From the UHGV virus genome UHGV-0261633: DNA of 18,805 bases; one strand, given 5' to 3'. The stretch's first letter is position 1, and each line of letters opens with the position of its first letter. The notes under the pieces are model-generated. The model was not told the DNA's origin and ran no database searches. It worked only from the letters and a program-made list of their open reading frames with translations. Position numbers and translations under genes: made by a program. Below are positions 1,728 through 18,389 of the stretch, one piece after another. Origin of the DNA: a virus.

Positions 1728-1803
1728 TGGAGAATCCGAAGGGACTCGAACCCTTATAAACCTGTTTTGCAGACAGGCACATAGCCATTTCTGTCACGGA
1801 TTC
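1728..1803 (-). tRNA. tRNA-Cys (anticodon GCA)
   Basis: Hand fold: encoded CCA (tgg on + at 1728-1730), acceptor gaatccg/cggattc perfect, T-arm aaggg-actcgaa-ccctt, anticodon loop in tRNA sense CUGCAAA. Confidence 0.8.
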
Positions 1804-1807
1804 AAAT

Positions 1808-1900
1808 TGGAGGAAGATACCAGACTTGAACTGGTACACCGATTTCTCAGCTACTGGCAGTTTAGCAAACTGCTCCCTTACCTTTTAGGGTTAATCTTCC
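1808..1900 (-). tRNA. tRNA-Ser (anticodon GCU), type II
   Basis: Encoded CCA, acceptor ggaagat/atcttcc perfect, T-arm accag-acttgaa-ctggt, long variable arm, anticodon stem gcagt/actgc with loop UUGCUAA. Confidence 0.8.
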
Positions 1901-1902
1901 AT

Positions 1903-2637
1903 TTATTTCTGTAATGCGTTCTTCATTTCTGGTGTTGCAATAGTGTCAATTACACCAGTTTTACAAGCATCATCAAACCAGTCTGGTAAGATACCTGCTA
2001 AGAACCCATTGATATTCGTTTTAAGGTACTCTGCAATAAGGGCAGCTTCTTCTTCAATCATCTGCACAACTTCATCTGCATAAGCTGTAATCTTCGAGAT
2101 ACCTTCATTAATCTTACTAACAGCTTGGTTAGCTAAATCAGAAATAGTATCAAGACCTTTGTCAATAGCGTCTTGTAAGTCACTTAATACATCATTAACA
2201 CCGTCTAGTGCACTGTTAATCATATCAATAGCTTTTTGACCATACTCTGTAGCAACACCCATAATACCACTAAATGGTGTACAGCCAACTTGTTCACCTG
2301 CTGCACCCATAACATTAGAATAACCTTTTGCTACCTGCATACGTGATGAAAACTCATCAATGGACTTTTGACCGTAATCTGTCAGTGTTTTGGTAGTTGA
2401 TGTAGTGCTTGTCAGACTCGTGGTAAAGCTGTTAAGCAGAACTGTTGTAAGTCCAGCAGCAACAAGCTTATCCTTTACTGTAGGGTCTGATACAGAACTA
2501 ATAGAGCTTACAAGTGATGTAGAGGCAGCTACGGTTCCACCGAGAACTGCTGCACCAGTAATAAGGGGGTTAGAAAACCCTTTACCAGTTTTTAAGAGAT
2601 TAAAAATCTCCTTACCTTGTTCTGTCATCTCTTTCAT
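1903..2637 (-). CDS. hypothetical Ser/Thr-rich protein (~244 aa) embedded in the tRNA array
   Basis: ORF track 1903..2700, but the first 21 codons overlap tRNA-Phe and begin at a non-ATG codon; internal ATG at 2635-2637 has an AAGGTG RBS. Low-complexity S/T/A-rich N-terminal half. Confidence 0.55.
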   Translation of the reverse strand: MKEMTEQGKEIFNLLKTGKGFSNPLITGAAVLGGTVAASTSLVSSISSVSDPTVKDKLVAAGLTTVLLNSFTTSLTSTTSTTKTLTDYGQKSIDEFSSRMQVAKGYSNVMGAAGEQVGCTPFSGIMGVATEYGQKAIDMINSALDGVNDVLSDLQDAIDKGLDTISDLANQAVSKINEGISKITAYADEVVQMIEEEAALIAEYLKTNINGFLAGILPDWFDDACKTGVIDTIATPEMKNALQK

Positions 2638-2653
2638 TAAGCACCTTTGAAAT

Positions 2654-2730
2654 TGGTAGTCCAGTGGGATTTGAACCCTCTTCTCATGTTTTTCAGACAC
2701 GCGCTTTAACCATATAAGCTACTTGGACTA
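2654..2730 (-). tRNA. tRNA-Phe (anticodon GAA)
   Basis: Acceptor tagtcca/tggacta perfect, T-loop atttgaa (one mismatch in T-stem), anticodon loop CUGAAAA; 3' CCA encoding ambiguous. Confidence 0.7.
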
Positions 2731-2735
2731 TAAAT

Positions 2736-2811
2736 TGGGGTGACCTACGGGATTTGAACCCGTATAGACCATGTTCACAGCATGGGTCATTACCATTTAT
2801 GATAAGGCCAC
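2736..2811 (-). tRNA. tRNA-His (anticodon GUG)
   Basis: Encoded CCA, acceptor with one G-U, T-arm acggg-atttgaa-cccgt, anticodon stem ccatg/catgg with loop CUGUGAA. Confidence 0.8.
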
Positions 2812-2842
2812 ATTTAAGGACTCTCGTAAGAATCCTTAGAAG

Positions 2843-2918
2843 TGGCAGCGGCATAAGGATTTGAACCTTAATAAGACAGCTTCAGAGACTGCTGCATTGC
2901 CAGTTATGCTATACCGCT
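2843..2918 (-). tRNA. tRNA-Gln (anticodon CUG)
   Basis: Encoded CCA, T-arm taagg-atttgaa-cctta, D-arm gcat-tgccagtt-atgc, anticodon loop CUCUGAA. Confidence 0.75.
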
Positions 2919-2923
2919 AAATT

Positions 2924-3002
2924 TGGTACTCCATATCGGATTCGAACCGATACATAACACAGATTTTAAGTCTGGCCTCTCTGCCAATTGGAGTAATGGA
3001 GC
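2924..3002 (-). tRNA. tRNA with leucine anticodon UAA but type-I length (putative tRNA-Leu)
   Basis: Encoded CCA, discriminator A, acceptor actccat/atggagc (terminal G-U), T-arm atcgg-attcgaa-ccgat, anticodon loop CUUAAAA; about 7-nt variable loop, no long arm. Confidence 0.55.
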
Positions 3003-3004
3003 AT

Positions 3005-3080
3005 TGGCGGGGGATGTTGGAATTGAACCAACTTCTTCGATTTCAAAGACCGAGGTTTTAACCTTGTAAACTAATCCCCT
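3005..3080 (-). tRNA. tRNA-Gln (anticodon UUG)
   Basis: Encoded CCA, T-arm gttgg-aattgaa-ccaac, anticodon loop CUUUGAA. Confidence 0.75.
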
Positions 3081-3088
3081 TTAAATCT

Positions 3089-3646
3089 TTACTTTCTCAG
3101 TGGATGAATAAAGAATGCCAACATAACTCTTTCCCTTGAGAATGCTCTTTCTTCTGGGACAACACTTTTTAGCTTCCATCCAACATAAATTCTCCAGTAG
3201 AATTGTTTACCAAAGACTTTAATTGATGGGATAAAAGCGAATAATCCCCAAGCATTACTGTTCCACATTAGGAGATAACCTGTCTGATTATCTTCAGGGT
3301 CAGAACTTACGTTGATATTGCCTTTCCACTTAGTAACATCTTTTACATCTCTTCCTAACACATGGTAAGAGAAGTTATAAGCTTTGTTTCTCCAGAGCCA
3401 TCCAACTCTCTGCAAATAGACACCAAGCTTACCAATCTTTCTAATCTTAGCCCATCTTTTAACGTGACCTTCATCACCATCAATCGGGTTGTCATATGTC
3501 TCCATCCATCTGAATCCAAAAGGTAAGTGTCCTTTCTTCTCACTGTAAAATGGAACTACAAAAGGTGCTAAGATAACTGCTAAGATTGCTGCCAATGGTT
3601 CTAGCAAAGCTAAGAAAATCCATGAAGCATACTTCAAGTATCTCAT
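3089..3646 (-). CDS. hypothetical membrane protein (185 aa) embedded in the tRNA array
   Basis: ORF track; AGAGG RBS about 9 nt upstream; hydrophobic N-terminal segment IFLALLEPLAAILAVILAPFVVPF, Trp-rich remainder. Confidence 0.6.
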   Translation of the reverse strand: MRYLKYASWIFLALLEPLAAILAVILAPFVVPFYSEKKGHLPFGFRWMETYDNPIDGDEGHVKRWAKIRKIGKLGVYLQRVGWLWRNKAYNFSYHVLGRDVKDVTKWKGNINVSSDPEDNQTGYLLMWNSNAWGLFAFIPSIKVFGKQFYWRIYVGWKLKSVVPEERAFSRERVMLAFFIHPLRK

Positions 3647-3665
3647 TTAAATAGCCTCTTTAAAT

Positions 3666-3741
3666 TGGCGCAGGATAAGGGATTCGAACCCCTATTAACA
3701 GCTTCGTAGACTGTTGCTCTATCCATTTGAACTAATCCTGC
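3666..3741 (-). tRNA. tRNA-Arg (anticodon ACG)
   Basis: Encoded CCA, acceptor gcaggat/atcctgc perfect, T-arm aaggg-attcgaa-cccct, anticodon loop CUACGAA. Confidence 0.8.
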
Positions 3742-3855
3742 TTACCTACAAGAACACCATACAGTTTTTCACAAGAGTTGTTTTTACGCCTGTTTTTGAA
3801 TGACGCTATAAACTTTTTTGCAATTGATTTATTACTCATAGTGTTCTCCTAAAAT

Positions 3856-3933
3856 TGGTGTTCCAAGACGGATTCGAACCGTCACTAGTACAAGGTTTGA
3901 GCTTGCATCCTCTGCCAATTGGGATACTGGAAC
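3856..3933 (-). tRNA. tRNA with leucine anticodon CAA but type-I length (putative tRNA-Leu)
   Basis: Reverse complement GUUCCAG-UA-UCC..GGA-U-GCAAG-CUCAAAC-CUUGU-ACUAGU-GACGG-UUCGAAU-CCGUC-UUGGAAC-A-CCA; 6-nt variable loop, discriminator A. Confidence 0.55.
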
Positions 3934-3934
3934 A

Positions 3935-4009
3935 TGGTACTCACTAAAGGACTTGAACCTTTTTCTTCATCTTGTAAGGGTGATGTTTTACCATATAAAC
4001 TAAGCGAGT
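3935..4009 (-). tRNA. tRNA-Val (anticodon UAC)
   Basis: Encoded CCA, T-arm aaagg-acttgaa-ccttt, anticodon loop CUUACAA. Confidence 0.75.
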
Positions 4010-4011
4010 AT

Positions 4012-4102
4012 GAAAGAGGTCTGAAGTTGTGCCGCTAACTCAACTCCGTGGGATTTGTTACGGTCTTCAGTTGACTCAAAGCGGTCTTTCACTTGACCTC
4101 TA
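4012..4102 (-). ncRNA. tRNA-sized structured element without a canonical T-loop (possible tRNA-like RNA or degenerate tRNA)
   Basis: Outer stem agaggt (4015-4020) / acctct (4096-4101), inner stem ctgaag (4021-4026) / cttcag (4065-4070), internal hairpin ccgt..acgg (4046-4063); no GTTCGAAUC motif in either orientation. Strand not determined from sequence. Confidence 0.3.
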
Positions 4103-4105
4103 AAT

Positions 4106-4181
4106 TGGTGCTCCCACAAGGATTCGAACCCTGATAAGTTACTTACAAGGCAACCGTAATAGCCAATTATACGATAGGAGC
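4106..4181 (-). tRNA. tRNA-Thr (anticodon UGU)
   Basis: Reverse complement GCUCCUA-UC-GUAU-AAUUGGCUA-UUAC-G-GUUGC-CUUGUAA-GUAAC-..-CAGGG-UUCGAAU-CCUUG-UGGGAGC-A-CCA. Confidence 0.8.
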
Positions 4182-4188
4182 ATTAATT

Positions 4189-4263
4189 TGGAGCATCCAG
4201 AGGGAATCGAACCCTCAACCTCAGTTTGGAAGACTGTAATTTTCCCGTTTAAACTATGGATGC
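4189..4263 (-). tRNA. tRNA-Gly (anticodon UCC)
   Basis: Encoded CCA, acceptor gcatcca/tggatgc perfect, T-arm gaggg-aatcgaa-ccctc, anticodon loop CUUCCAA. Confidence 0.8.
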
Positions 4264-4269
4264 ACTAAT

Positions 4270-4345
4270 TGGTGGAGTCACCGAGAATTGAACTCGGTTC
4301 CCAAGTTTGCAAAACTCGAATTTTAACCATATAAACTATGACCCC
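4270..4345 (-). tRNA. tRNA-Ala (anticodon UGC)
   Basis: Encoded CCA, T-arm ccgag-aattgaa-ctcgg, anticodon loop UUUGCAA. Confidence 0.8.
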
Positions 4346-4351
4346 ATTGTT

Positions 4352-4427
4352 TGGTACAGGTGGAGGGAATTGAACCCATCGTCTTACTGATTAAGAGTCA
4401 GCCGCATAACCATTTTGCTACACCTGC
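4352..4427 (-). tRNA. tRNA-Lys (anticodon CUU)
   Basis: Encoded CCA, acceptor with terminal G-U, T-loop aattgaa (T-stem only 3 clean pairs), anticodon loop CUCUUAA; paralogous in outline to the tRNA at 5656-5731. Confidence 0.7.
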
Positions 4428-4434
4428 ATTAATT

Positions 4435-4512
4435 TGGTAGGAGACAAGGGATTCGAACCCTCAAACACCAACTTCTAAGGATGGTAGGTTTACCAATTAC
4501 CGTCAATCTCCC
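4435..4512 (-). tRNA. tRNA with leucine anticodon UAG but type-I length (putative tRNA-Leu)
   Basis: Encoded CCA, discriminator A, acceptor 7 pairs with two G-U, T-arm aaggg-attcgaa-ccctc, anticodon stem CCAUC/GUUGG (one mismatch) with loop CUUAGAA; D-arm poorly paired. Confidence 0.5.
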
Positions 4513-4593
4513 ATTAAATCTTTTTAGAGAACTTCTAAGAACCTAAGCAACAAGGTTCCACAACAAGCTGTAATAACCTTAGAAGCCCTCTAA

Positions 4594-4613
4594 AAAGACC
4601 TAAATAGGTCTTT
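4594..4613. other. AT-rich hairpin in array spacer (weak terminator-like)
   Basis: aaagacc-taaata-ggtcttt flanked by A/T runs; orientation and function unclear. Confidence 0.25.
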
Positions 4614-4767
4614 GCATAGTCTTGTTTAATCCGGTGACTAGAACCTTTGGAGAGCTTGATATTATCTCTTCTCCGTGACACCTACTAGGTGCTTTGACAG
4701 TGTACGACAATACACGAGGGATACCAAAGCAACATCCAAATGAAGCTTGGCTTTAAATCTTATTAGG

Positions 4768-4855
4768 CGGTAAGTAAAGGAGTCGAACCCTCACCGTATC
4801 TCTACAGTGGCAACTGTTTTCAAGACAGTTTGGCTACCATTAGCCGCTACCTACC
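4768..4855 (-). tRNA. tRNA-Ser (anticodon UGA), type II
   Basis: T-arm aaagg-agtcgaa-ccctc, ~20-nt variable region, anticodon stem actgt/acagt with loop CUUGAAA, acceptor ggtaagt/acctacc with one G-U; CCA apparently not encoded. Confidence 0.65.
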
Positions 4856-4868
4856 CCTAATAAGACTT

Positions 4869-4951
4869 TGGCATGGGACGGAGGAGTTGAACCCCTTTGA
4901 AACGGTTTTGGAGGCCGTTGCTCATGCCTTAGAGTCTTAACATCGTCCCAT
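4869..4951 (-). tRNA. tRNA-Trp (anticodon CCA)
   Basis: Encoded CCA, acceptor atgggac/gtcccat perfect, T-arm ggagg-agttgaa-cccct, anticodon loop CUCCAAA; D-region longer than canonical. Confidence 0.6.
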
Positions 4952-5093
4952 ATTATAATTCGAAGCTTACCCTGTTATCTCAACACTGTCAAGCTTCTTC
5001 TCAGATTATTTACATGTTCTGGAAAACATGAGATACAGACCACCTCCCTACAGGAAGACCCGCTAAGGCCGTCTAAGTAATCTGCTAACTATT

Positions 5094-5175
5094 TGGTCGA
5101 GGCGGCAGGACTCGAACCCGCATACTCCACTTACTCGGTTAACGGCGGTTTAGAAGACCGCTGAGATACGCCCCG
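5094..5175 (-). tRNA. tRNA-Arg-like (anticodon UCU) with non-canonical body
   Basis: Encoded CCA, acceptor cgaggcg/cgccccg, T-arm gcagg-actcgaa-cccgc, perfect anticodon arm GCGGU-CUUCUAA-ACCGC; but only 7 nt between acceptor and anticodon stem (no room for a D-arm) and 23 nt between anticodon and T arms. Confidence 0.45.
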
Positions 5176-5423
5176 TAATTATCTTTAAAGACTCTCTTAG
5201 AAAGCCCTTAAAGATGCCCACCTTATTAATCATACCGTGGGCGAGTACGCCAAATTCTTTAATGAGGGATTGGAAGACCTCACTGGTGTTTAGCCTATCA
5301 AGCTACTGCCAGAAAAACATTGTCGTTTGCATTTATTTTAAATTTGCAAAATAGACGCTACGCAACGAAAACTAAGGTTACTATAAAGTAGTCACATCTC
5401 AATGTCAACAACTTTATTGAAAT

Positions 5424-5498
5424 TGGTTGTAGGTGAGGGTATCGAACCCTCTTCTAACGGTTATCAGCCGTTTGCATTACCATTTATGCTAACCCACA
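5424..5498 (-). tRNA. tRNA-Ile (anticodon GAU)
   Basis: Encoded CCA, T-arm gaggg-tatcgaa-ccctc, D-arm gcat-taccattt-atgc, anticodon stem aacgg/ccgtt with loop CUGAUAA. Confidence 0.8.
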
Positions 5499-5500
5499 AT

Positions 5501-5577
5501 TGGAGGTTCAGATGGGAATCGAACCCACATTCATAGGGCTTATGAAACCCCTGCATTACCTTATCTGCGACTGAACC
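5501..5577 (-). tRNA. tRNA-Met (anticodon CAU), elongator-like acceptor
   Basis: Encoded CCA, acceptor ggttcag/ctgaacc perfect, T-arm atggg-aatcgaa-cccac, anticodon stem GGGGU/GCCCU with loop UUCAUAA. Confidence 0.7.
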
Positions 5578-5655
5578 AGAATAAGTACCCTAGTTAGAGA
5601 AACTGTTGAGTGGGTGTTTCCAGCCGCGCAGGTGTTTCTCAGTTAAGGGTGAATT

Positions 5656-5731
5656 TGGTAGAAGTGGAGGGATTCGAACCCATCGCCTGTCAGATTAAAA
5701 GTCTGCCGCATCACCATTCTGCTACACTTCC
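5656..5731 (-). tRNA. tRNA-Lys (anticodon UUU)
   Basis: Encoded CCA, acceptor with terminal G-U, T-loop attcgaa, anticodon loop CUUUUAA. Confidence 0.7.
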
Positions 5732-5736
5732 ATTAA

Positions 5737-5876
5737 ATTATCTTTGTAGATAAGCTACCCAGACTTGCTTAAGGTCTGTAGCGATGTGCCTTTTGGGTTT
5801 AAATCTAGAATTTACCCTTCACCCTTTGTGGTCGCATACTCACAGGTAAGCTTAATAACTTATCTACAAAGATAAT
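5737..5876. repeat. 18-bp perfect inverted repeat flanking a 104-bp ORF-free segment
   Basis: attatctttgtagataag (5737-5754) is the exact reverse complement of cttatctacaaagataat (5859-5876). Confidence 0.85.
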
Positions 5877-5920
5877 TACCAGACCGTTGTTTATCATCTT
5901 AAGTGCTACCATTACACCAA

Positions 5921-5975
5921 CTCGACATCTGCCGAGTGAAGGAATCGAACCTTCGCCTTTTCTTTACCGGAGAAA
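5921..5975 (-). other. tRNA fragment-like element (canonical T-arm plus one hairpin, no matching acceptor 5' strand)
   Basis: T-arm gaagg-aatcgaa-ccttc (5938-5954) and hairpin tttct-ttaccgg-agaaa (5958-5974); no complementary acceptor strand found downstream. Confidence 0.3.
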
Positions 5976-5990
5976 TAGATTGTTTAAGTT

Positions 5991-6018
5991 TTGCTGTAAA
6001 CGGTCTTCTGTAAATTTG
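5991..6018. repeat. 28-bp exact direct repeat, copy 1 (ttgctgtaaacggtcttctgtaaatttg)
   Basis: Identical 28-mer at 6471-6498; degenerate copies at about 6078-6097 and 6638-6658. Confidence 0.85.
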
Positions 6019-6130
6019 TTGAGCCAGACCAAGTTTTAAATTTTCAAAATTAAATTGGCTTGAAATTTCATACATTCTTGCTGTATTTGGTCTTCTGCTC
6101 CTTTAAAGAATACTCGTAAGAACTCTTTAA

Positions 6131-6153
6131 GGGAGGGGCTAAATAGCCCTCTC
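6131..6153. other. GC-rich hairpin gggaggggct-aaat-agccctctc
   Basis: Shares the 15-mer ggggctaaatagccc with a hairpin at 18364-18378. Confidence 0.5.
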
Positions 6154-6158
6154 AAAAT

Positions 6159-6235
6159 TGGCGGCTACGATGAGACTTGAACTCACATCATCTCCCGTGA
6201 CAGGGGAGTATTTTCTCCAGTTAAACTACATAGCC
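6159..6235 (-). tRNA. tRNA-Asp (anticodon GUC)
   Basis: Encoded CCA, T-arm atgag-acttgaa-ctcac, anticodon stem ctccc/gggag perfect with loop CUGUCAC. Confidence 0.8.
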
Positions 6236-6240
6236 TTTAT

Positions 6241-6328
6241 TGGTGTGCCGTGTAGGAGTCGAACCTACCGAGTCTCAATGACAAGGGATTTACAGTCCCC
6301 ACCGCTACCATCTACGGGATAACGACAC
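6241..6328 (-). tRNA. tRNA-Tyr (anticodon GUA), type II
   Basis: Encoded CCA, T-arm gtagg-agtcgaa-cctac, ~15-nt variable region, anticodon loop CUGUAAA. Confidence 0.75.
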
Positions 6329-6336
6329 ATTTAATT

Positions 6337-6413
6337 TGGCGGTTAGTCAGGGATTCGAACCCTGTGCCATTCGCTTAACAGGCGACCGCACATACCTTAT
6401 GTGCTTCCTAACC
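6337..6413 (-). tRNA. tRNA-Asn (anticodon GUU)
   Basis: Encoded CCA, T-arm caggg-attcgaa-ccctg, D-arm gcac-ataccttat-gtgc, anticodon loop CUGUUAA. Confidence 0.75.
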
Positions 6414-6470
6414 ATGTTTAGTATTACCAGACCGTATCTTTCAATTTTTCCGCTAAAAATTTAATAAGTA

Positions 6471-6498
6471 TTGCTGTAAACGGTCTTCTGTAAATTTG
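6471..6498. repeat. 28-bp exact direct repeat, copy 2, abutting the 3' end of a tRNA-Met gene
   Basis: Identical to 5991-6018. Confidence 0.85.
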
Positions 6499-6573
6499 GA
6501 GGCGGGTGCAGGAGTCGAACCTGCCGATACCATGCTAATGAGACATGTGAGACGCCCTTTCTCTATACCCGCA
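6497..6573 (-). tRNA. tRNA-Met (anticodon CAU), possibly initiator-type or tRNA-Ile2
   Basis: Encoded CCA, T-arm gcagg-agtcgaa-cctgc perfect, anticodon stem CAUGU/GCAUG with loop CUCAUUA, D-arm gaga-cgccctt-tctc; position 1-72 appears unpaired. Confidence 0.65.
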
Positions 6574-6664
6574 ATTCTTAATGACCAGACCAAATCTCTT
6601 CTTTGTCCGATTTACCTTCAGATGAATAAGATTAAGTTTGCTGTAATTGGTCTTCTGTCAAAAC

Positions 6665-6742
6665 TGGCGTTCCAGAAGGGATTTGAACCCTCAAATATCC
6701 ACTTTGAAAGAGTGGTGACTTTACCATTTTGTCTACTGGAAC
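6665..6742 (-). tRNA. tRNA-Glu (anticodon UUC)
   Basis: Encoded CCA, acceptor gttccag/ctggaac perfect, T-arm aaggg-atttgaa-ccctc, anticodon stem ccact/agtgg with loop CUUUCAA. Confidence 0.8.
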
Positions 6743-6749
6743 ATTAATT

Positions 6750-6826
6750 TGGTCTCTGTTGGAGGACTTGAACCTCCGGCCTTACCGCCCCAAACGGAAC
6801 GCTCTACCAAGCTGAGCTAAACAGAG
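6750..6826 (-). tRNA. tRNA-Pro (anticodon UGG)
   Basis: Encoded CCA, acceptor ctctgtt/aacagag perfect, T-arm ggagg-acttgaa-cctcc, D-arm gctc-taccaagct-gagc, anticodon loop UUUGGGG. Confidence 0.8.
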
Positions 6827-6991: not shown

Positions 6992-8407
6992 TTACCAGAT
7001 ATAACGGTCAATCATTACTGCTTTGAGCATTACGCTGATTGGGTCAAACTTCTCACCACTAAGCAGAGCTTTTAAAGTGGCTGGAGAGAAACCAGATACC
7101 ATTGCTACACCGTTATCCTTAACAGATACTTCGCAAGTACCATTACGGTTTGCTAAGTACCAGAATACCAGTTGTGGCATCTCATATCCAGCTTTTTTGT
7201 ACTTACTCTGAATTGCTTCAAAGTTTGTACGACCGTTAGCTCCATCAACCTGATTGAACTCCATATCGGAGAAGATGATAAGCTTACTTGGCATATCTTT
7301 CTGAGTCAAGTTGTTTCTTTTACCTGTTTCAAGAATGCGGTCAAAAGCTGCTTGTAAGTTAGTTGAGCCATATTCAACGTGTCGCATCACCTGACGATGA
7401 CGGTTTCGTAAATCACCACTCAGTTCGATGAAGTGAGGGTTTGTCGAATAAACCATCAACTCATTCTTAAAGCAACCTGTATTGCGTTCTGCTACATACA
7501 AGGCAAGTGATACACCAATATCCAGAGCAGTAATGGAGCCAAAATTCACCCAAGACATTGAACTTGATACATCAGACATACACAAGATGTTTTCACCTTC
7601 TGCCATCCAGTTTGGTAGTGCTTTCCACTGCTCATTAGCAACATCTGCATTACCATACTTGACAGATTTAATCACATCGTATGGGTAAACAGCACCAGCG
7701 TTAATCTTAGTCTCACCTTTTGATAAGGACTCGATGTAAGCTTTGTAACGCTCTCCATCTTTACGGTTAAACAGTTTTTGGTAACGTGCAGCAGCAAGTG
7801 AAGGAATCTTACTGTAGTCAATCTTACCAAACTCATTAGCAGAGATTTTTTGCTCAACTGTATCAGATAGTGCAGACAACAGTGTGCGGTACTCTTTCTC
7901 ACTCAAGTTGGCAAACTTGCAGAAACGTTTTACAAACTGCTTATGACGTGGTTTGACTCGTGGTAACCACTTAGCCGCCAAACCTGCTGTTGCAGGGTCT
8001 AGTAATGCTGCTTCTAAATGTTTGAAGGCATCTGTCTCGAAACGAGTACCTACGAAGATTTTGAAGTCATCAAAACGACCAAGTTCTGCAATCTTATCCA
8101 TAATGCGAAGAACCTGTGTAGGCTCTAAAACTTTATCTTCAATTGCTTGAAGCAAAACAGTTCTGAAGGCTTTACGCTCACCCATACCTTCTCGTACATC
8201 TCGCATATGCAGTAAAATACGAACTGCAACATCAACATCCTCACGCAAAGCTTTGTAGAACAGGTCTGGTAAGATTTCTACATTGCTACGGCTTGAACCA
8301 GCAGCTTTGTAAAAGTCTACAAGAGCAGACATTGATGAAGTATGGTTTACAGCACCATTTTCAGTTCGACCTGCATGAAGGTGCGCATGTTTAAATAATT
8401 CGCTCAT
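6992..8407 (-). CDS. von Willebrand factor A (vWA/MIDAS) domain protein, 471 aa, with ~270-aa helical N-terminal domain
   Basis: ORF track; C-terminal half has a DxSxS MIDAS motif (ILCMSDVSSSMS) and a vWA-like hhhhSD motif (KLIIFSDMEFNQ); GAGAG RBS. Domain call is from motif recognition only. Confidence 0.8.
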   Translation of the reverse strand: MSELFKHAHLHAGRTENGAVNHTSSMSALVDFYKAAGSSRSNVEILPDLFYKALREDVDVAVRILLHMRDVREGMGERKAFRTVLLQAIEDKVLEPTQVLRIMDKIAELGRFDDFKIFVGTRFETDAFKHLEAALLDPATAGLAAKWLPRVKPRHKQFVKRFCKFANLSEKEYRTLLSALSDTVEQKISANEFGKIDYSKIPSLAAARYQKLFNRKDGERYKAYIESLSKGETKINAGAVYPYDVIKSVKYGNADVANEQWKALPNWMAEGENILCMSDVSSSMSWVNFGSITALDIGVSLALYVAERNTGCFKNELMVYSTNPHFIELSGDLRNRHRQVMRHVEYGSTNLQAAFDRILETGKRNNLTQKDMPSKLIIFSDMEFNQVDGANGRTNFEAIQSKYKKAGYEMPQLVFWYLANRNGTCEVSVKDNGVAMVSGFSPATLKALLSGEKFDPISVMLKAVMIDRYIW

Positions 8408-8488: not shown

Positions 8489-8860
8489 TTATTTTTTGAG
8501 GGTTGCAACAGCAGAGAACGTTGGTTTGTTGTCTGTCTGAGACTGACCACCATTATCAGGGGTCTTCTTAGTGTCTGCTGCAATCGCTTTCATCTCACCT
8601 GCTGAGTGGGTCATGATAGTTTTACCAGCTTCCATCATCGACTTCAGGTTTACATCGTCAGTCGTCAAACCGAACTCTGCAAGCTTAGCAGCGTCCCTTG
8701 TAACAATCGCTTCAAACAACTTTGCAGCAAACTCAGCAGAATTATCAATGGTCAGTTGAGCTTTTACAAGTGAGCTTTTGTTACGTGAGCCTTTTGGTCT
8801 TCCAGATGGGTTTCCAGACTGGCCTTTTTTAAACTGGCCTTTGTTTGTTCTGTTTTTCAT
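8489..8860 (-). CDS. hypothetical basic protein (123 aa) with N-terminal GQSGNPSGRPKG motif
   Basis: ORF track; AAGAGG RBS 8 nt upstream. Lys/Gly-rich N-terminus; I recall this motif from small phage DNA-binding/terminase-small-subunit-associated proteins, unverified here. Confidence 0.65.
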   Translation of the reverse strand: MKNRTNKGQFKKGQSGNPSGRPKGSRNKSSLVKAQLTIDNSAEFAAKLFEAIVTRDAAKLAEFGLTTDDVNLKSMMEAGKTIMTHSAGEMKAIAADTKKTPDNGGQSQTDNKPTFSAVATLKK

Positions 8861-9271: not shown

Positions 9272-9486
9272 AAATCGCAGATATTATAGATTTATATCAA
9301 ACTGCAAAGAGTCATGGCTATATAACCTCAATTGGAAAGAATAGTCACTATGATGCTTTGACTGGAATGTATTTCAGGGCAATGGCTCAATCTAGTGAAC
9401 AACACTTAATGGTTTCTTCCAGTGAGTTTACTTCGTTTCTCTATTGCAGCAAAATTATAAATCGCAGGAGAACTGAAAAATGTTAA
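9253..9486 (+). CDS. hypothetical protein (77 aa)
   Basis: ORF track; AAGAGGA RBS upstream; overlaps neighbours. Confidence 0.4.
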   Translation: MCSSQLEIADIIDLYQTAKSHGYITSIGKNSHYDALTGMYFRAMAQSSEQHLMVSSSEFTSFLYCSKIINRRRTEKC

Positions 9487-10070
9487 CAGTAAGTTTTAAT
9501 TACAATAGTGATGGCTCTGTATCAATTAATTCACCATATGCAAACGACCTATTGAAAGAGTTAGTTAATCAGTGTGACAGAGGTCTTCACTATGTTCCAA
9601 ATTCTTTTAAACAGAAGACTATTGCTAATAACTTGATGCGTGTAACAGTAACGTCATCGAATCCAAATTATGACTTTGATAGTGAAAGCCCGTACTCATT
9701 AGTTGCGCTTGGAGAGAGCAGCCAATTCAAACTTGTTTGCCACGACTCAGAAACATTCCTTAAGGTATTTTCCAACCTTATCCATAATAATAAGTACAGC
9801 TACGTTGATGGTAGTGTAAATTTCTATCCAGCAAACTATACATGTTTGTTGGTTGATAATATGAGAAAAAGTAAGCAAGAGCCTACGGAAATTTCATTTG
9901 ATGTGAACTCTAGTCCAGATGCAGAAACAAGTAAGAACTTTGATATGAGTTACGCATTGTCACTCAGTAAGAAATCCGAGTTCATTGATTATGTCAATGG
10001 ATTTGGTTTTAAGTTTGATGAGAGTATGAATCTTAAAAAACTTAAGAACCTACTTAAGACCAAAGCTTAA
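9480..10070 (+). CDS. hypothetical protein (196 aa)
   Basis: ORF track; AGGAG RBS about 8 nt upstream; followed by GC hairpin. Confidence 0.7.
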   Translation: MLTVSFNYNSDGSVSINSPYANDLLKELVNQCDRGLHYVPNSFKQKTIANNLMRVTVTSSNPNYDFDSESPYSLVALGESSQFKLVCHDSETFLKVFSNLIHNNKYSYVDGSVNFYPANYTCLLVDNMRKSKQEPTEISFDVNSSPDAETSKNFDMSYALSLSKKSEFIDYVNGFGFKFDESMNLKKLKNLLKTKA

Positions 10071-10078
10071 GTGTGAAT

Positions 10079-10096
10079 AGGGGCTTATGCCCCTTT
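10079..10096 (+). terminator. GC hairpin terminator-like element
   Basis: aggggc-ttat-gcccct followed by ttt. Confidence 0.5.
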
Positions 10097-10117
10097 AACT
10101 ATTTATAAGGATATTTA

Positions 10118-10489
10118 ATGAAAGCTAAGAGTGCAAAAGACTTTTATTGCTTCCTACAATCCTATATCAATTCCGTGCAAAATGGTGAAAGGTACAACCT
10201 TAATGATGTTATCCCAACACCTTTGACATGGAGACTCAGTAAATGGCCTGAAGAAGATATTACACCAACAAGCGAACAGCGTACCTACAAACCTGAAATT
10301 AATATTCCAGACTCTGAGAATCTATTATACCCAATGTTCCATATTGTTGGTCTTGGAAGATTCCTTATGGATATCCAGTATGTAATTGGTAAAGGTTATA
10401 AGGTTAAAGATATTGTCGTTGGTGATGTATCTCCGAATCACAAAGGTTATTTTAGACTAAACGCACATTTAGAGGCTGAAAAGAAATGA
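10118..10489 (+). CDS. hypothetical protein (123 aa), paralogous to the N-terminal domain of the next gene
   Basis: ORF track; shares an aligned pattern with the next ORF (YPDFKEF../KDFYCF.., GxRYx, W..PE.DI, YKP.., FxMDxQY). Confidence 0.7.
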   Translation: MKAKSAKDFYCFLQSYINSVQNGERYNLNDVIPTPLTWRLSKWPEEDITPTSEQRTYKPEINIPDSENLLYPMFHIVGLGRFLMDIQYVIGKGYKVKDIVVGDVSPNHKGYFRLNAHLEAEKK

Positions 10490-11622
10490 TTAAAGCAAAG
10501 ACTTACCCAGACTTCAAAGAGTTTGTGAAGGGCTTCATTGCAAACGTAAAGGCTGGTAAGAGATATGATTTTAGAACATATCAAGAGGCTATTTTACCAC
10601 TTACCTATAGCTCGTATTGGCCTGAAGCTGATATTGCAGAAGTTGAGAAGTTTGACTATAAACCAGACTACAAAGTTCCATTTAGTGATGAGTTGCTTTA
10701 CAGTGTTGGTGCTCAAATGAGAACTTCTGACTTCTTCATGGACTTACAATATGCAATTATCAATGGTAAAGACGTTGATACAGTTTATTGTGAATGGCTG
10801 GCAAGAGTTAAACCATTCTCAATGTTGAATGCTAAGTTGAAGGACGCTATCAAGCCACCATCAATCACTCAGCAACCAACCAATCAAACAGTAAATGAAG
10901 GTGGTACACTTACCCTAAGCGTTATTGCAACTAATGCCACTGGATATCAATGGAAAAAGGATGGTGAGGATATCACTAGCGCCACATCTGCAACTTACAC
11001 AAAACAGTCAGTAGCACCTTCTGACGCTGGTTCATATACTTGTGTTGTATCTGGGGAGGGTGGGACAAGTGTCACATCAGATGCAGCAACAGTTACTGTG
11101 AATGCCTTACCAGTGATTACCAAGCAACCTTCTAACCAGACCGTTAATGAAGGTGGAAACATCAGCTTAGCAGTTACTGCAACAGGTGCAACTGGTTACC
11201 AATGGAAGAAAGATGGTTCCGACATCCCTTCAGCTACAAAGGCCACATATAGCAAATCTGGTGCACTTCCAGCAGATGCTGGCTCATACACTTGCGTTGT
11301 AACAGGTGCTGGAGGTTCGGTTACTTCTAACCCTGCAACTATCACAGTAAACGCACTACCAGTTATTACTCAGCAACCAACAAATCAAGAAATCACAGAA
11401 GGTGAAACCTTGACACTAAGTGTTGTAGCTACTGGTGCAACAGGCTATCAGTGGAAGAAAGATAACGTAAACATTCCTAGTGCAACTGCTGCAACTTACA
11501 CCAAAGAAAGTGCAACGAGTGCAGATGATGCAGGAAGCTACACTTGTGTAGTAACTGGCGCAGGTGGTTCGGTAACATCTAATGCGGCAACAGTTACAGT
11601 TAATCCAGCAGGAGGTGAATAA
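10486..11622 (+). CDS. protein with paralogous N-terminal domain plus three tandem Ig-like domains (378 aa)
   Basis: ORF track; three ~82-aa repeats each with QPxNQxVxEGxxLxL..ATGYQWKKDG...AGSYTCVV.GAGGSVTS..ATVTVN, a typical Ig-like (I-set-type) signature. Confidence 0.85.
   Translation: MIKAKTYPDFKEFVKGFIANVKAGKRYDFRTYQEAILPLTYSSYWPEADIAEVEKFDYKPDYKVPFSDELLYSVGAQMRTSDFFMDLQYAIINGKDVDTVYCEWLARVKPFSMLNAKLKDAIKPPSITQQPTNQTVNEGGTLTLSVIATNATGYQWKKDGEDITSATSATYTKQSVAPSDAGSYTCVVSGEGGTSVTSDAATVTVNALPVITKQPSNQTVNEGGNISLAVTATGATGYQWKKDGSDIPSATKATYSKSGALPADAGSYTCVVTGAGGSVTSNPATITVNALPVITQQPTNQEITEGETLTLSVVATGATGYQWKKDNVNIPSATAATYTKESATSADDAGSYTCVVTGAGGSVTSNAATVTVNPAGGE
10861..11598 (+). repeat. three tandem ~246-bp coding repeats (Ig-like domain units)
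   Basis: Approximate unit boundaries 10861/11107/11353, read from the protein repeats. Confidence 0.8.
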
Positions 11623-12086
11623 TGCAACTCTCAAGGAAAGGTTTAGAAGCCATTAAGTTCTTTGAAGGTCTTAAGTTAGAGGCTTACGAAGACTCTGCCG
11701 GAATCCCAACAATCGGGTATGGTACAATCCGTATTGACGGGAAACCTGTTAAGATGGGTATGAAAATCACTGCCGAGCAAGCTGAACAGTATCTTCTCGC
11801 GGATGTTGAGAAGTTTGTTGCAGCAGTGAACAAAGCTATCAAGGTTCCAACTACTCAGAATGAGTTCGATGCACTTGTAAGTGAAACATACAACATCGGT
11901 ATCACAGCTATGCAGGATTCCACATTTATCAAGCGCCACAATGCTGGTAATAAGGTAGGTTGTGCAGAAGCTATGCAGTGGTGGAACAAGATTACAGTCA
12001 AAGGTAAGAAGGTAACTTCAAACGGCTTGAAAAATAGACGTAGAATGGAAGCTGACATTTATCTTGACAGTGTATATCCAAAGTAA
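11622..12086 (+). CDS. endolysin, T4-type lysozyme (glycoside hydrolase family 24)
   Basis: ORF track; N-terminal FFEGLKLEAYEDSAGIPTIGYGT matches the GH24 catalytic Glu/Asp/Thr region; GGAGG RBS; strong terminator follows. Confidence 0.9.
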   Translation: MQLSRKGLEAIKFFEGLKLEAYEDSAGIPTIGYGTIRIDGKPVKMGMKITAEQAEQYLLADVEKFVAAVNKAIKVPTTQNEFDALVSETYNIGITAMQDSTFIKRHNAGNKVGCAEAMQWWNKITVKGKKVTSNGLKNRRRMEADIYLDSVYPK

Positions 12087-12095
12087 TATCTTCAT

Positions 12096-12122
12096 AGGCT
12101 CCTTCGGGAGCCTTTTTTATTT
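12096..12122 (+). terminator. rho-independent terminator after the endolysin gene
   Basis: aggctcc-ttcg-ggagcct then tttttatttt. Confidence 0.85.
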
Positions 12123-12137
12123 TCTAAGGAGAAAACT

Positions 12138-12536
12138 ATGAAGCTTTGGGCTAGTGATTTTGGGACTTTTAAATACACTCGTAATGGTTCGCTTGTACGC
12201 ATCATTGGAAACAATGTAGTTTCAAGAGGCGACAAGGTGTATACACGGTTTACTGTAGAGCTTGTTGAGCTGTCACCTATTGAGTCTGTGAACAATGGTA
12301 TGTTCAAGTTTGAGACTTACAATGTCAATGAGCATGGACAATTCAATCCTCTTGGTGAAAGTGGACTTGATATTATTTCAGAGCACCCATTGACAAAAGA
12401 GCAACTTGCAGGTTACTATAAAACTGTTCTGGAAAGGCAGTTAGCAACACATGAACAAGAGGCTAACTATCATTTACAACATTGCGAAGCTTTAAGAGCA
12501 AAAATAGAACAAGCAGAGAGAGGTTTTTATGAATAA
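12138..12536 (+). CDS. hypothetical protein (132 aa)
   Basis: ORF track; AAGGAG RBS. Confidence 0.7.
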   Translation: MKLWASDFGTFKYTRNGSLVRIIGNNVVSRGDKVYTRFTVELVELSPIESVNNGMFKFETYNVNEHGQFNPLGESGLDIISEHPLTKEQLAGYYKTVLERQLATHEQEANYHLQHCEALRAKIEQAERGFYE

Positions 12537-16731: not shown

Positions 16732-16742
16732 AATATCTTAAG

Positions 16743-16766
16743 AGCCTCCTTAATCGGGGGCTTTTT
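16743..16766 (+). terminator. rho-independent terminator closing the plus-strand gene block
   Basis: agcctcc-ttaatc-gggggct then ttttt. Confidence 0.75.
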
Positions 16767-16835
16767 AATTTTTATAAAATTTATCGGTTGTCCCAACCGC
16801 TGGGTCACCATCATATGTGAATAAAATATCTACCC

Positions 16836-17850
16836 TTCTTAACAACCTTCTTAATCTTACTCTCTATATAGTTATATAGTACTATATAGTATCTTAGTAT
16901 CTATCTAGTGGTCTTAATAGCCCCTCTGTATAGTCCTTCTAAACACTCTTCTAACAAGCCTTCTTAACAACCTATACAATCACCTTAACCATACCTCTAC
17001 ACCCTCTTAGAAGCCCCTATACACCTCTTAATCTCTAGGTTAGCTATGTTACCCTCTATAGGTGTTCACTAGGTACTACTAAACCTCTATATAGACTGTT
17101 TTAACAAACTTAACAGGAATATCTTCACAGACCTTATCTCACAAGGTCTAACACGGTACTAACAAGGTATCTTATAAGCCTGTTATTACCTGTATTTTTA
17201 AAAGACTGTATAGGTAATTATTCAGAATTTTAAAATTTTTATAAAATAGGGCTATCAAGTCATTTTTTAGGGTCTTTGAAGGAACTGAAAAATATCTGTA
17301 GAAGATGTATATCTGCTTGGTAGCCCTTAACAGCCCCCTTACAAGTACTTTGCAAAATTTTAAAATATCCTTAACAATCTCTTAACAGCTACTACAGCCT
17401 CTTAACATCTCTTCAGAGGTCTTAACAGATTCTTAACAGAACTAACAAGGTTGTAACAAGTTCTTAACAGTCGATACATGGTCTTTACAGAGTCTTAACA
17501 GATGACTAACAAGAGCTAACAAGTTAATTTTTAAGAGTTATTTTGTTAAGATAATTAACAAGTCTCTAACAAGTGTTTAATCTTTTTAACAAGCTATTAA
17601 CATGGTCACTACTCTTTTCTTATCGTTCCCTTTGCTTCTTAGTGATTCTTTAAACATACCTCTTAAAAGCTCTCTATAGCTCCTTGTAAGCTCTTTTAAG
17701 TCTCTTCCTAGTATTTACCCCCCAACTGTACAGATAGCTCTTTATAGGGCTTTACAGGAGCTTTTAAGGCTATGTCAAAGACTCTTACAAGGCTTTTACG
17801 TGGTCTTAACAGAGATTTAACAAGGGGCTAACAAGTTGCTAACAAGTGCC
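16836..17850. repeat. array of short direct repeats (core TTAACAR / CTAACAAG), iteron-like
   Basis: At least 20 copies by eye, e.g. 17381, 17401, 17421, 17433, 17442, 17453, 17463, 17494, 17506, 17516, 17555, 17566, 17586, 17805, 17817, 17828, 17839; many spacings of 9-12 bp; no ORF of 60 aa or more in any frame across 16732-18380. Confidence 0.75.
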
Positions 17851-18324
17851 TTAAAAGCATAACTATGTAGGGTTTGTTAAGAAATTGTTAAGAAAATGTT
17901 AAGGGGGCTAGCATTTACGTAACTTTTAAGCTACTTCAAAGTAACTTTATAGCCCCTATAACATACTTTAAAGGAACTACCAAGCCCTTTTTAGTAGTTC
18001 ACAAGAATACTAACGAGATGATAAAGCTTACACCCTTATAAGATTCTTCTAAGGCTCTGGGAAGCTCTATAAAGGGCTTTTTAGAGTGGGTTAATGCAAT
18101 CCCTTAAGTTAGGTTGATAAGGCTGTTATAGGGCTTTATAGAGCGTTTAAATGGTTGCCCTTCCCTTTCGGGTTATGGGCTTTTATTTAAGTTGATTTGA
18201 TAAGAGGTTATAGAGTAGACTATAGAGTTATTGCTTTTAAGGTACGGGATAGATTCTATCGAATTAGTGGGATAGATTCTGGAAAGGGAAGGGAAAGGGT
18301 TGTATAGAGGCTATTACAGAGACG

Positions 18325-18351
18325 TAAAAAAGCCCCTATGAGAAAGGGGCT
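18325..18351 (-). terminator. rho-independent terminator (minus strand) downstream of the 82-aa gene
   Basis: agcccct-atgagaa-aggggct preceded on + by aaaaaa, giving a U-tract on the minus strand. Confidence 0.7.
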
Positions 18352-18363
18352 GTAAAGGTATCT

Positions 18364-18379
18364 GGGGCTAAATAGCCCC
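18364..18379. other. GC hairpin ggggc-taaata-gcccc
   Basis: Shares the 15-mer ggggctaaatagccc with 6136-6150. Confidence 0.5.
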
Positions 18380-18389
18380 GTTGCGTCGA

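Follow-up and report, generated by a model that had tools for sequence, protein, structure and literature searches.

The 123-aa and 378-aa open reading frames at positions 10118–11622 of UHGV virus genome UHGV-0261633 are likely to form, with the endolysin gene that follows them, a late three-gene unit of a Felix O1-like phage, in the order short paralog, Hex-Dec and endolysin. In this reading, which we hold to be likely as a whole, the 378-aa product is Hex-Dec, the (Hoc-like) hexamer decoration protein of Felix O1-type heads, already known and structurally solved. The 123-aa product is, judged from its sequence, a stand-alone copy of the Hex-Dec capsid-binding domain (CapBD) and an old tandem duplicate. 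The main object is published; the new part is the upstream CapBD-only paralog, which has not been described. The window (the whole 18,805-nt stretch that was analysed) belongs to Felixounavirus, that is, to a Felix O1-like myophage, and is 93–95% identical to many Felixounavirus genomes.

All features discussed here lie on the + strand, and the late unit would run from a weak hairpin on its 5′ side to a strong terminator on its 3′ side. At 10079–10094, the upstream element combines a short GC hairpin, AGGGGCTTATGCCCCT, with an interrupted run of T, TTAACTATTTAT, after it (RNA fold −14.4 kcal/mol, z −1.9). Positioned just 5′ of the gene pair, it is probably a weak, leaky terminator; it was not called by the consensus terminator scan, and the equivalent site is an annotated rho-independent terminator in wV8 and is included in Table 2 of the Felix O1 paper. 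The short paralog ORF (10118–10489, exact coordinates confirmed) is preceded by a Shine-Dalgarno sequence, AAGGA, at 10107–10111, read from the sequence 6 nt 5′ of the ATG. Its stop codon overlaps the Hex-Dec start in an ATGA junction (10486–10489) that indicates translational coupling; the window shares it with 25 of 27 related IMG/VR loci. The Hex-Dec ORF (10486–11622) encodes the CapBD followed by three Ig-like domains, and its TAA stop overlaps the endolysin ATG by one base (TAATG). The endolysin, the final gene of the unit, starts after a strong Shine-Dalgarno sequence, GGAGGTG, and encodes a 154-aa GH24 phage lysozyme at 11622–12086 (Pfam PF00959 Phage_lysozyme, E = 5e-41; PHROG 7), directly downstream of the gene pair as the sequence-only reading had proposed. 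An intrinsic terminator, AGGCTCCTTCGGGAGCCT then TTTTTATTTT, at 12096–12123 closes the unit; it was found by the terminator scan and is annotated at the same place in wV8. The late-promoter motif CTATTTATAAGG, allowing at most two mismatches, has five matches against 2.9 expected, which is not significant, and a sigma-70 scan gave no convincing promoter upstream of 10118.

We also considered a frameshift that would fuse the two ORFs, and rejected it. The junction contains no X XXY YYZ slippery heptamer, and a TGA stop in the Hex-Dec frame 9 nt 5′ of the ATG leaves only three codons available for a shift. The solved chains, moreover, begin at Hex-Dec residue 1, and the mass listed for Felix O1 gp36, 31.6 kDa, is the predicted one.

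The assignment of the 378-aa protein is carried by its match to solved capsid chains. With phmmer, residues 1–343 align with PDB 9ncf_S (E = 5.5e-260) and residues 1–372 with 9c2d_S (E = 8e-170), and the protein matches PHROG 3995 at E = 3.6e-209. The CapBD comprises aa 1–124 (10486–10857) and is near-identical to residues 1–124 of 9ncf_S; Pfam has no family for this N-terminal domain. Cryo-EM structures of Bas63 and Sf14 place a CapBD monomer at the centres of the 60 pentamer-proximal hexamers of the T=9 capsid, with the Ig-like domains extending outward from the capsid (PMC12609058, PMC11821841). Arg79 and Arg107 of Hex-Dec form salt bridges to Asp221 of the major capsid protein (PMC11821841). 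Both arginines are kept in the window, encoded by AGA codons at 10720–10722 and 10804–10806, and the domain is strongly constrained within the genus (97–99% amino-acid identity, dN/dS mostly 0.01–0.04). Mass spectrometry finds Hex-Dec in Felix O1 and Sf14 virions, with Felix O1 gp36 at 44% coverage. The suggestion, made from the letters of the window, that Ig modules of this kind decorate the virion thus agrees with cryo-EM of two relatives and with virion mass spectrometry.

Binding at hexamer centres in the window phage is carried over from the Bas63 and Sf14 structures. The CapBD would plug the centres of the 60 pentamer-proximal hexamers via Arg79/Arg107–Asp221 salt bridges, and the three Ig-like domains would stick out as a flexible fibre. 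The function of this fibre is called unknown by both structure papers (PMC12609058, PMC11821841). By analogy with T4 Hoc, we infer that it may mediate weak adhesion to glycans, cell surfaces or other particles, without stabilizing the capsid. The full protein has a pI of 4.8. The database label ‘tail protein’ is wrong for this protein: the PHROG matches named ‘major tail protein’ start no earlier than residue 96 and fall essentially within the Ig part, and the CapBD matches capsid chains only.

Pfam identifies three stretches in the 378-aa protein for each of Ig_3 (E = 2.8e-33), Ig_2 (1.2e-27) and I-set (7.8e-26). Together with the delimitation of the repeat units, these define Ig-like domain 1 at aa 125–208 (10858–11109), domain 2 at aa 209–291 (11110–11358) and domain 3 at aa 292–375 (11359–11610). 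The sequence-only reading had counted three near-identical domains of ~82 aa, encoded by ~246-bp repeats. Its count stands, but the units measure 83–84 aa with a period of 249–252 bp, and they are far from near-identical: pairwise identity is 71–73% for protein and 65–68% for DNA, and the longest exact DNA word common to units is 11–14 nt. Tandem Repeats Finder reports no array in 10858–11610 because the repeats are too diverged, a null result that itself contradicts near-identity. The copy number among relatives is 1, 2, 3 or 4, with three domains in the window, four in Bas63, three in Sf14, two in Felix O1 and VpaE1 and one in the SP116 type. Repeat junctions in the relatives are in-register chimeras, the pattern expected from unequal recombination between repeats. 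Variation of repeat number by recombination had been anticipated from the window, and the copy-number variation is already in the literature (PMC12609058, PMC11821841).

The short paralog is homologous to the CapBD along its entire length. BLASTP aligns its residues 1–119 with residues 2–119 of Hex-Dec (44/121 identical, 36%; E = 2e-17), so that the N-terminal domains of the tandem ORFs do align, as had been claimed. It also matches 9ncf_S over residues 2–118 (E = 5.5e-12) and PHROG 3995 (E = 1.8e-15). Its homologs include wV8 gp42, Felix O1 gp37 and Bas63 bas63_0125, its PHROG family (4463) is labelled ‘unknown function’, and no Pfam family matches it at E up to 1. Since the N-terminal domain of Hex-Dec is the solved CapBD, the 123-aa gene would encode a capsid-binder-like protein that lacks the display module. 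The protein terminates 3–5 residues past the CapBD, with no Ig, Big_2 or other displayed module, and it is hydrophilic (GRAVY −0.5). It is predicted to keep the full CapBD fold, at the moderate confidence of an AlphaFold2 pLDDT of 77. That model was built with distant family members included (20 sequences); a run on 15 close sequences gave a pLDDT of 58 and was discarded.

In the alignments, both capsid-anchoring arginines are replaced in the window's short paralog. Gly78 (10349–10351) is aligned with Arg79 of Hex-Dec, and glycine at this position is at least 90% conserved in the short family. Asn107 (10436–10438) is aligned with Arg107; N, Q, H or R occupies this position in the other short paralogs. 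A comparison of 25 gene pairs gives 44 alignment columns that are fixed within each paralog family yet differ between the families, against 35 that are shared. The fixed differences are densest at residues 74–79 and 91–113, segments that cover both arginine positions, and the short family has an invariant, more hydrophobic PMFHIVGLG where the CapBD has SVGAQMRTS. Arg81 of the window's short paralog is Thr in most relatives, and net charge does not consistently separate the two paralogs across genera.

The short paralog is present in about 233 of 253 Ounavirinae records, and a divergent 87-kb contig carries it at 44% identity in the same gene order. It is intact at 122–124 aa in 27/27 IMG/VR loci checked and is also found in Bas63 (83% identity). 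The family is confined to the Felix O1-like phage group, where it forms 12 clusters among 1.84 billion representative proteins. The gene is under its own purifying selection: dN/dS is 0.07–0.21, even at dS of ∼1, and many residues are at least 90% conserved in the family, with protein evolution ∼5 times faster than that of the CapBD. A 228-bp internal deletion of the gene is common to 19 phage records that form one clade (hosts E. coli, Salmonella and Shigella). The paralog is dispensable for plaque formation, and its loss from a successful clade means that any role is accessory. A proposed tie between paralog loss and possession of a single Ig domain was rejected, as the paralog is intact in loci L005, L022, L023 and L024, each of which has a single Ig domain.

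Expression and virion data come from relatives. Felix O1 RT-PCR shows ORFs 36 and 37 (Hex-Dec and the short paralog) to be maximal at 60 min and the lysin ORF 35 to peak at 25 min. Felix O1 gp37 is missing from a stringent virion proteome, though proteins of 9.7–13.7 kDa were detected, and the VpaE1 virion proteome contains no extra protein at the short-paralog locus. The short paralog gives seven tryptic peptides of 9–26 aa and should therefore be detectable. No PDB chain matches it better than E = 5e-12, though Bas63 encodes an ortholog. The Bas63 paper reports no density on other hexamers (PMC12609058), and neither structure paper mentions the short paralog (PMC12609058, PMC11821841). The protein is apparently absent from virions, as judged from stringent-cut-off proteomes and icosahedrally averaged maps that were not designed to find it. 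Averaging would also smear out an Ig-less 14-kDa monomer that lies on a three-fold axis.

The role of the short paralog can be assigned only tentatively. It may be a non-structural protein that acts late in the infected cell, at the same assembly step as Hex-Dec, a reading to which we give appreciable weight but well short of even chances. It might transiently occupy or compete for hexamer centres, for example on procapsids; alternatively, it might be a partner or chaperone of Hex-Dec. That it is a dedicated regulator of capsid decoration, a ‘blank plug’ that binds hexamer centres without display, is unlikely. Such a plug would sit on procapsids or on the 20 three-fold hexamers and set the 60-of-80 occupancy of Hex-Dec or the timing of its attachment; to our knowledge, no blank-plug paralog of a decoration protein has been described for any phage. 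Recruitment to a non-capsid target, either a host factor or a role as decoy for a defence system that senses the CapBD, with the homology as history only, is quite unlikely. The clustering of the 44 fixed differences on capsid-contact segments, the invariant PMFHIVGLG, the faster evolution, the dispensability in one clade and the failure to see the protein in virions would all fit such a change of target. Against it, the strict adjacency and ATGA coupling with Hex-Dec suggest a linked function, transcription is late rather than early, there is no Pfam family match, and the family occurs only in Felix O1-like phages.

A role for the short paralog as a further decoration protein, one without Ig domains, is distinctly improbable. 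It would fill the 20 true three-fold hexamers not occupied by Hex-Dec and would so far have been missed because a monomer on a three-fold axis averages out. Retention of the predicted CapBD fold and late co-expression and translational coupling with Hex-Dec are in keeping with this idea, as is the report of a different Asp221 geometry in the true three-fold hexamers of Sf14, where Arg79 and Arg107 fit poorly (PMC11821841); the paralog is altered at exactly these positions. However, the hexamer centre is Asp-lined, and the paralog has lost two basic anchors and gained no conserved ones. The report of no density on the other hexamers of Bas63, the silence of the Felix O1 and VpaE1 virion proteomes, in which smaller and rarer proteins were detected, and the faster evolution also oppose it. 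The short ORF is almost certainly not a decaying, functionless remnant of the duplication. Its deletion in one clade and its rapid change could be so read, but it is intact throughout the IMG/VR loci, in Bas63 and in the lineage at only 44% identity, and its low dN/dS at high divergence and its many conserved residues argue for maintenance. Equally hard to credit is the proposal that the gene pair is a cell-surface-binding accessory to lysis that acts with the adjacent endolysin; the sequence-only reading had taken the placement before the lysozyme as a hint of a cell-surface-binding accessory function. The order of CapBD gene and lysozyme is kept even in distant relatives, the genes overlap and share terminators, and Felix O1-type phages have no holin gene beside the lysin (Felix O1 paper). 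Cryo-EM and mass spectrometry nevertheless locate the 378-aa protein on the capsid of relatives, hydrophobic segments and signal-like N-termini are absent from both proteins, the Felix O1 transcription times are discordant, and normal lysis in the SP116 clade, which is without the short gene, counts against the proposal. The adjacency of the CapBD gene and the endolysin is conserved synteny, which is no evidence of a common function, and no link to lysis was found.

A practical consequence of the Hex-Dec assignment is the correction of the ‘tail protein’ or ‘major tail protein’ label across hundreds of Felix O1-like genomes. If the short paralog binds capsids, it would help to explain why Hex-Dec occupies only a subset of hexamers and would provide Felix O1-type therapeutic phages with a natural Ig-free anchor for phage-display engineering. 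If it binds no capsids, it would be a modest case of a structural domain recruited elsewhere.

The closest known systems are Bas63 Hex-Dec (9NCF chain S) and Sf14 gp20 (9C2D/9C3A chain S), which are direct orthologs of the 378-aa protein and share its N-terminal CapBD with Arg79 and Arg107 followed by an Ig string. As in wV8 and Bas63, the gene is not part of the structural module but follows the short paralog and directly precedes the endolysin. T4 Hoc resembles Hex-Dec in being a non-essential, acidic monomer at hexamer centres with an outward Ig-like string, and PHROG ‘Hoc-like head decoration’ families match the Ig part of the 378-aa protein. In contrast to Hoc, whose capsid-binding domain is C-terminal, the CapBD is N-terminal here, sequence similarity is limited to the Ig domains, and no Hoc chain appears among the fold matches. 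The single Ig domain of T5 pb10 (5LXK, 8ZVI) is homologous to the third of the three domains here (5lxk_A, E = 1.4e-11; 8zvi_a, E = 2e-11; residues 300–374 only). Full-length, 164-aa pb10 (8zvi_a) aligns at its residues 82–159 only, so the capsid-binding domains of the two proteins have no detectable sequence similarity.

More distant relatives of the CapBD are found among metagenomic proteins P0177, P0178, P0179, P0180 and P0181, which have the ∼120-aa N-terminal domain in common (profile E = 1.4e-8 to 3e-4). At least one of them is encoded directly upstream of a phage lysozyme, and the modules they display differ: Big_2-type, single Ig, or a Lys-rich disordered tail. The three distant loci examined, one of them (L033) only a 1.7-kb contig, have one CapBD gene each and no short paralog. 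The duplication thus appears to be specific to the Felixounavirus/Mooglevirus/Suspvirus branch and the L031 lineage.

The two open reading frames lie in tandem on the plus strand, the first encoding a 123-residue protein (positions 10118–10489; the short paralog) and the second a 378-residue protein (10486–11622), as a sequence-only reading of this DNA had placed them. They are followed by a GH24 phage lysozyme gene (11622–12086, plus strand; Pfam, E = 5e-41). A good Shine-Dalgarno sequence (AAGGA, 6-nt spacer) precedes the short gene. The stop codon of this gene overlaps the start of the 378-residue frame in an ATGA junction, which is found in 25 of 27 related loci; the GAGG of the 378-residue frame is poorly placed. 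The lysozyme ATG in turn overlaps the stop of that frame and is served by a strong GGAGGTG. Ahead of the short gene, at a distance of 24 nt, is a GC hairpin and broken T tract, which is listed as a terminator in the annotation of relatives; a canonical terminator follows the lysozyme gene.

Positions 9400–12200 matched 251 phage records by megablast, 204 of them with at least 80% query coverage and the best with 93–95% identity; nearly all of these records are Felixounavirus and kin (phages of Escherichia, Salmonella, Shigella and Citrobacter). The annotated wV8 genome has the identical gene order: a tRNA cluster, two genes on the opposite strand (DUF2828, ‘RNA-binding’, and DUF5681) and then, on the plus strand, small ORFs, a 196-residue ORF, a terminator, gp42 (123 residues), gp41 (‘tail protein’), the endolysin and a terminator. 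The tRNA cluster of the window (1728–6826, minus strand) contains 25 genes by ARAGORN, 23 of which were confirmed by Rfam, with one extra weak Rfam call at 5097–5175; this is typical of Felix O1-like phages. Between this cluster and the decoration/lysis unit are the genes for a 471-residue DUF2828/DUF7788 protein (6992–8407, minus strand; ‘RNA-binding protein’ in the wV8 annotation) and a DUF5681 protein (8489–8860, minus strand), a pair that also flanks the locus in distant relatives. The 196-residue ORF (9480–10070, plus strand) belongs to PHROG 4034 and is always located upstream of the gene pair; distant relatives have a 185–195-residue ORF at this position, one with a faint Phage_Inh_N match. 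Elsewhere in the window, a region of ~1.6 kb (16732–18380) has no ORF of at least 80 residues, and its repeats are densest at 17340–17903. It contains phased (C/T)TAACA(A/G) copies with 10–11-nt and 31-nt spacing, inverted at 17861–17903, and looks like an iteron-type protein-binding array. At other places in the genomes of relatives, repeats are annotated as ‘DR’ or ‘possible binding site of StbAB’.

The 378-residue protein is already known and structurally solved. Searches of PDB sequences matched it to chain S of 9ncf (‘Immunoglobulin-like domain protein’, 460 residues; E = 5.5e-260) and chain S of 9c2d/9c3a (‘Putative tail protein’, 372 residues; E = 8e-170), which derive from cryo-EM of phage Bas63 (PMC12609058) and Shigella phage Sf14 (PMC11821841), respectively. 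In both phages the T=9 capsid carries two decoration proteins, the first forming a β-tulip trimer lattice and the second, the chain matched here, present once per asymmetric unit and hence in 60 copies per head, with its Ig-like domains disordered in the maps (PMC12609058, PMC11821841). In Sf14, Arg79 and Arg107 of this hexamer decoration protein (Hex-Dec) form salt bridges to Asp221 in three of six capsid subunits; at the true three-fold hexamers the Asp221 geometry differs and the centres are empty (PMC11821841). Both arginines are kept in the window’s protein, which is acidic (pI 4.8), has all sequence-testable features of the Ounavirinae Hex-Dec family and, as judged from these, belongs to it. 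The capsid-binding domain at its N-terminus (CapBD, residues 1–124) would sit in 60 hexamers, anchored at their Asp-lined centres, with a flexible acidic Ig fibre projecting outward; this anchoring was observed in relatives and is carried over to the window’s phage on the basis of about 95% identity. The fibre may, by analogy with T4 Hoc, serve weak adhesion or particle–particle interactions rather than capsid stabilization, a Hoc-like role also proposed in both structural studies (PMC12609058, PMC11821841).

In CsCl-purified virions of Felix O1, the two-Ig version of this protein (gp36, 31.6 kDa) was identified with 44% coverage. We regard the ‘tail protein’ label found in many genomes as a legacy error, because gp36 owed its name, ‘major tail protein’, to Ig similarity. 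No PHROG ‘tail’ match to the 378-residue protein starts before residue 96, and these matches are essentially confined to the Ig region.

The proposed tandem paralogy stands: the short protein aligns with the Hex-Dec N-terminal domain at 36% identity over 121 columns (BLASTP, E = 2e-17). It has no Pfam family and is a member of PHROG 4463 (‘unknown function’), with a further match to the N-terminal part of the Hex-Dec family (PHROG 3995). No solved PDB chain is the short protein itself; its sole matches in a PDB sequence search were the two Hex-Dec chains, both over residues 2–118 (E = 5.5e-12 and 2.3e-11), and it is therefore homologous to the CapBD. An AlphaFold2 model from an alignment including distant relatives (pLDDT 77, pTM 0.75) matched only 9c2d_S and 9ncf_S in Foldseek, over the whole domain (TM 0.71–0.74), and the CapBD fold has no other PDB match in fold searches. 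The short protein, a stand-alone copy of the whole fold, ends a few residues past the CapBD.

The contact residues are altered. Of the alignment columns of 25 gene pairs, 35 are conserved with the same residue in both families, and 44 are conserved within each family but differ between the two, most densely at residues 74–79 and 91–113, the segments containing Arg79 and Arg107. The Arg79 equivalent in the short family is Gly78 (at least 90% conserved), within an invariant PMFHIVGLG motif, and the Arg107 equivalent is Asn, Gln, His or Arg. Of the features of a working decoration protein, the short protein lacks two, the arginine anchors and a displayed module. The conserved upstream gene, a paralog of the CapBD alone whose contact residues are altered, is undiscussed in the literature consulted; neither the gene nor the word ‘paralog’ appears in the two structural studies (PMC12609058, PMC11821841).

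In tblastn searches, the short paralog was found at 60% identity or more in about 233 of 253 records (Felixounavirus, Mooglevirus and Suspvirus), and Hex-Dec in every one. When 1.84 billion representative proteins were searched exhaustively with a profile, only 12 clusters were found, indicating a small family specific to the Felix O1-type group. One of these (P0175, 122 residues, 44% identical) is encoded on an 87-kb metagenomic contig with the window’s synteny (195 residues, 122 residues, 298-residue Hex-Dec, lysozyme). In more distant members the CapBD is fused to Big_2-type domains, a single Ig domain or a disordered tail rich in Lys. Three distant metagenomic loci (L033, L034 and L036) have a single CapBD gene, which suggests that the duplication arose on the branch to the Felix O1 group; in L034 it lies directly upstream of the lysozyme gene, beside DUF2828 and DUF5681 genes.

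The short gene appears to be dispensable. Salmonella phage SP116 (L002, 2305–2498) lacks the equivalent of window positions 10190–10417 (228 bp) and has a degraded gene start. The same junction occurs in 19 records as a single-piece match (94–100% identity), from phages whose isolation hosts were E. coli, Salmonella and Shigella; one old deletion has thus persisted in a successful clade. Where the gene is kept, pairwise dN/dS against the window is 0.07–0.21 even at dS of about 1, compared with mostly 0.01–0.04 for the CapBD, and identity within the genus falls to 83–88%, compared with 97–99%. The divergence pattern is that of two separately constrained genes with different surfaces, not that of a decaying copy; a dead gene is very improbable.

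The short protein apparently lies outside the virion. Whole-phage shotgun analysis of Felix O1 found 17 proteins, some of just 9.7–13.7 kDa, and gp37, its short paralog, was not among them. The VpaE1 virion proteome (22 proteins) added only gp54, gp58 and gp68 relative to Felix O1; the short paralog there would be ORF40, adjoining ORF39 (294-residue Hex-Dec). Tryptic digestion of the protein would give seven peptides of 9–26 residues, so it is detectable in principle. Bas63 encodes a copy (bas63_0125, 83% identical); the study of this phage models 22 virion gene products and reports no density on the other hexamers (PMC12609058). This negative evidence is indirect and agrees across four phages. 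It is unlikely that the short protein is a ‘blank plug’ of the 20 three-fold hexamers, and a role unrelated to the capsid is only slightly less so. Adjacency to the lysozyme gene had suggested an accessory function in cell-surface binding. A lysis-related interpretation is not supported: Hex-Dec sits on the capsid in relatives, and by RT-PCR Felix O1 ORFs 36 and 37 fall in the 60-min class and the lysin, ORF 35, in the 25-min class. A lysis accessory is as improbable as a dead gene. The best reading, though a tentative one, is that the short protein is a relative of the anchor that is late and non-structural and has a remodelled capsid-facing surface; its action, at hexamer centres or on Hex-Dec itself, would be transient.

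Hex-Dec’s three Ig-like domains were each recovered by several Pfam families (for example Ig_3, E = 2.8e-33), with three stretches per family. Their description as near-identical ~246-bp repeats was overstated: the units are 83–84 residues long with start-to-start spacing of 252 and 249 bp, share 71–73% protein and 65–68% DNA identity, and were not detected in the window by Tandem Repeats Finder. Database matches include 377- and 460/461-residue forms, and in 27 IMG/VR loci the length is 210, 294, 377 or 461 residues, corresponding to 1, 2, 3 or 4 Ig domains, a variation already published (PMC12609058). When every domain third was classified against the window’s Ig1–3, the one-Ig forms were Ig1/Ig3 chimeras with varying crossover points (1/1/3 in locus L005, 1/3/3 in L022), the two-Ig forms Ig1 plus Ig3, one with a 2/3/3 chimera, and the four-Ig forms carried an additional 3/3/1 chimera. 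Such in-register chimeras are expected products of unequal recombination, as the sequence-only reading had rightly guessed. In the window’s genome these events should be rare, because the longest exact words common to the repeats are just 11–14 nt. The Ig-coding DNA (10858–11610) was compared with loci L004–L030: between phages with 97–99% identity in the CapBD protein it is only about 75–95% identical, and individual domain thirds change nearest relative, which suggests frequent mosaic exchange inside the Ig region.

In its way of working the 378-residue protein resembles T4 Hoc and T5 pb10, yet it is a member of neither family: its domain order is reversed relative to Hoc, and with pb10 it has only the Ig domain in common.
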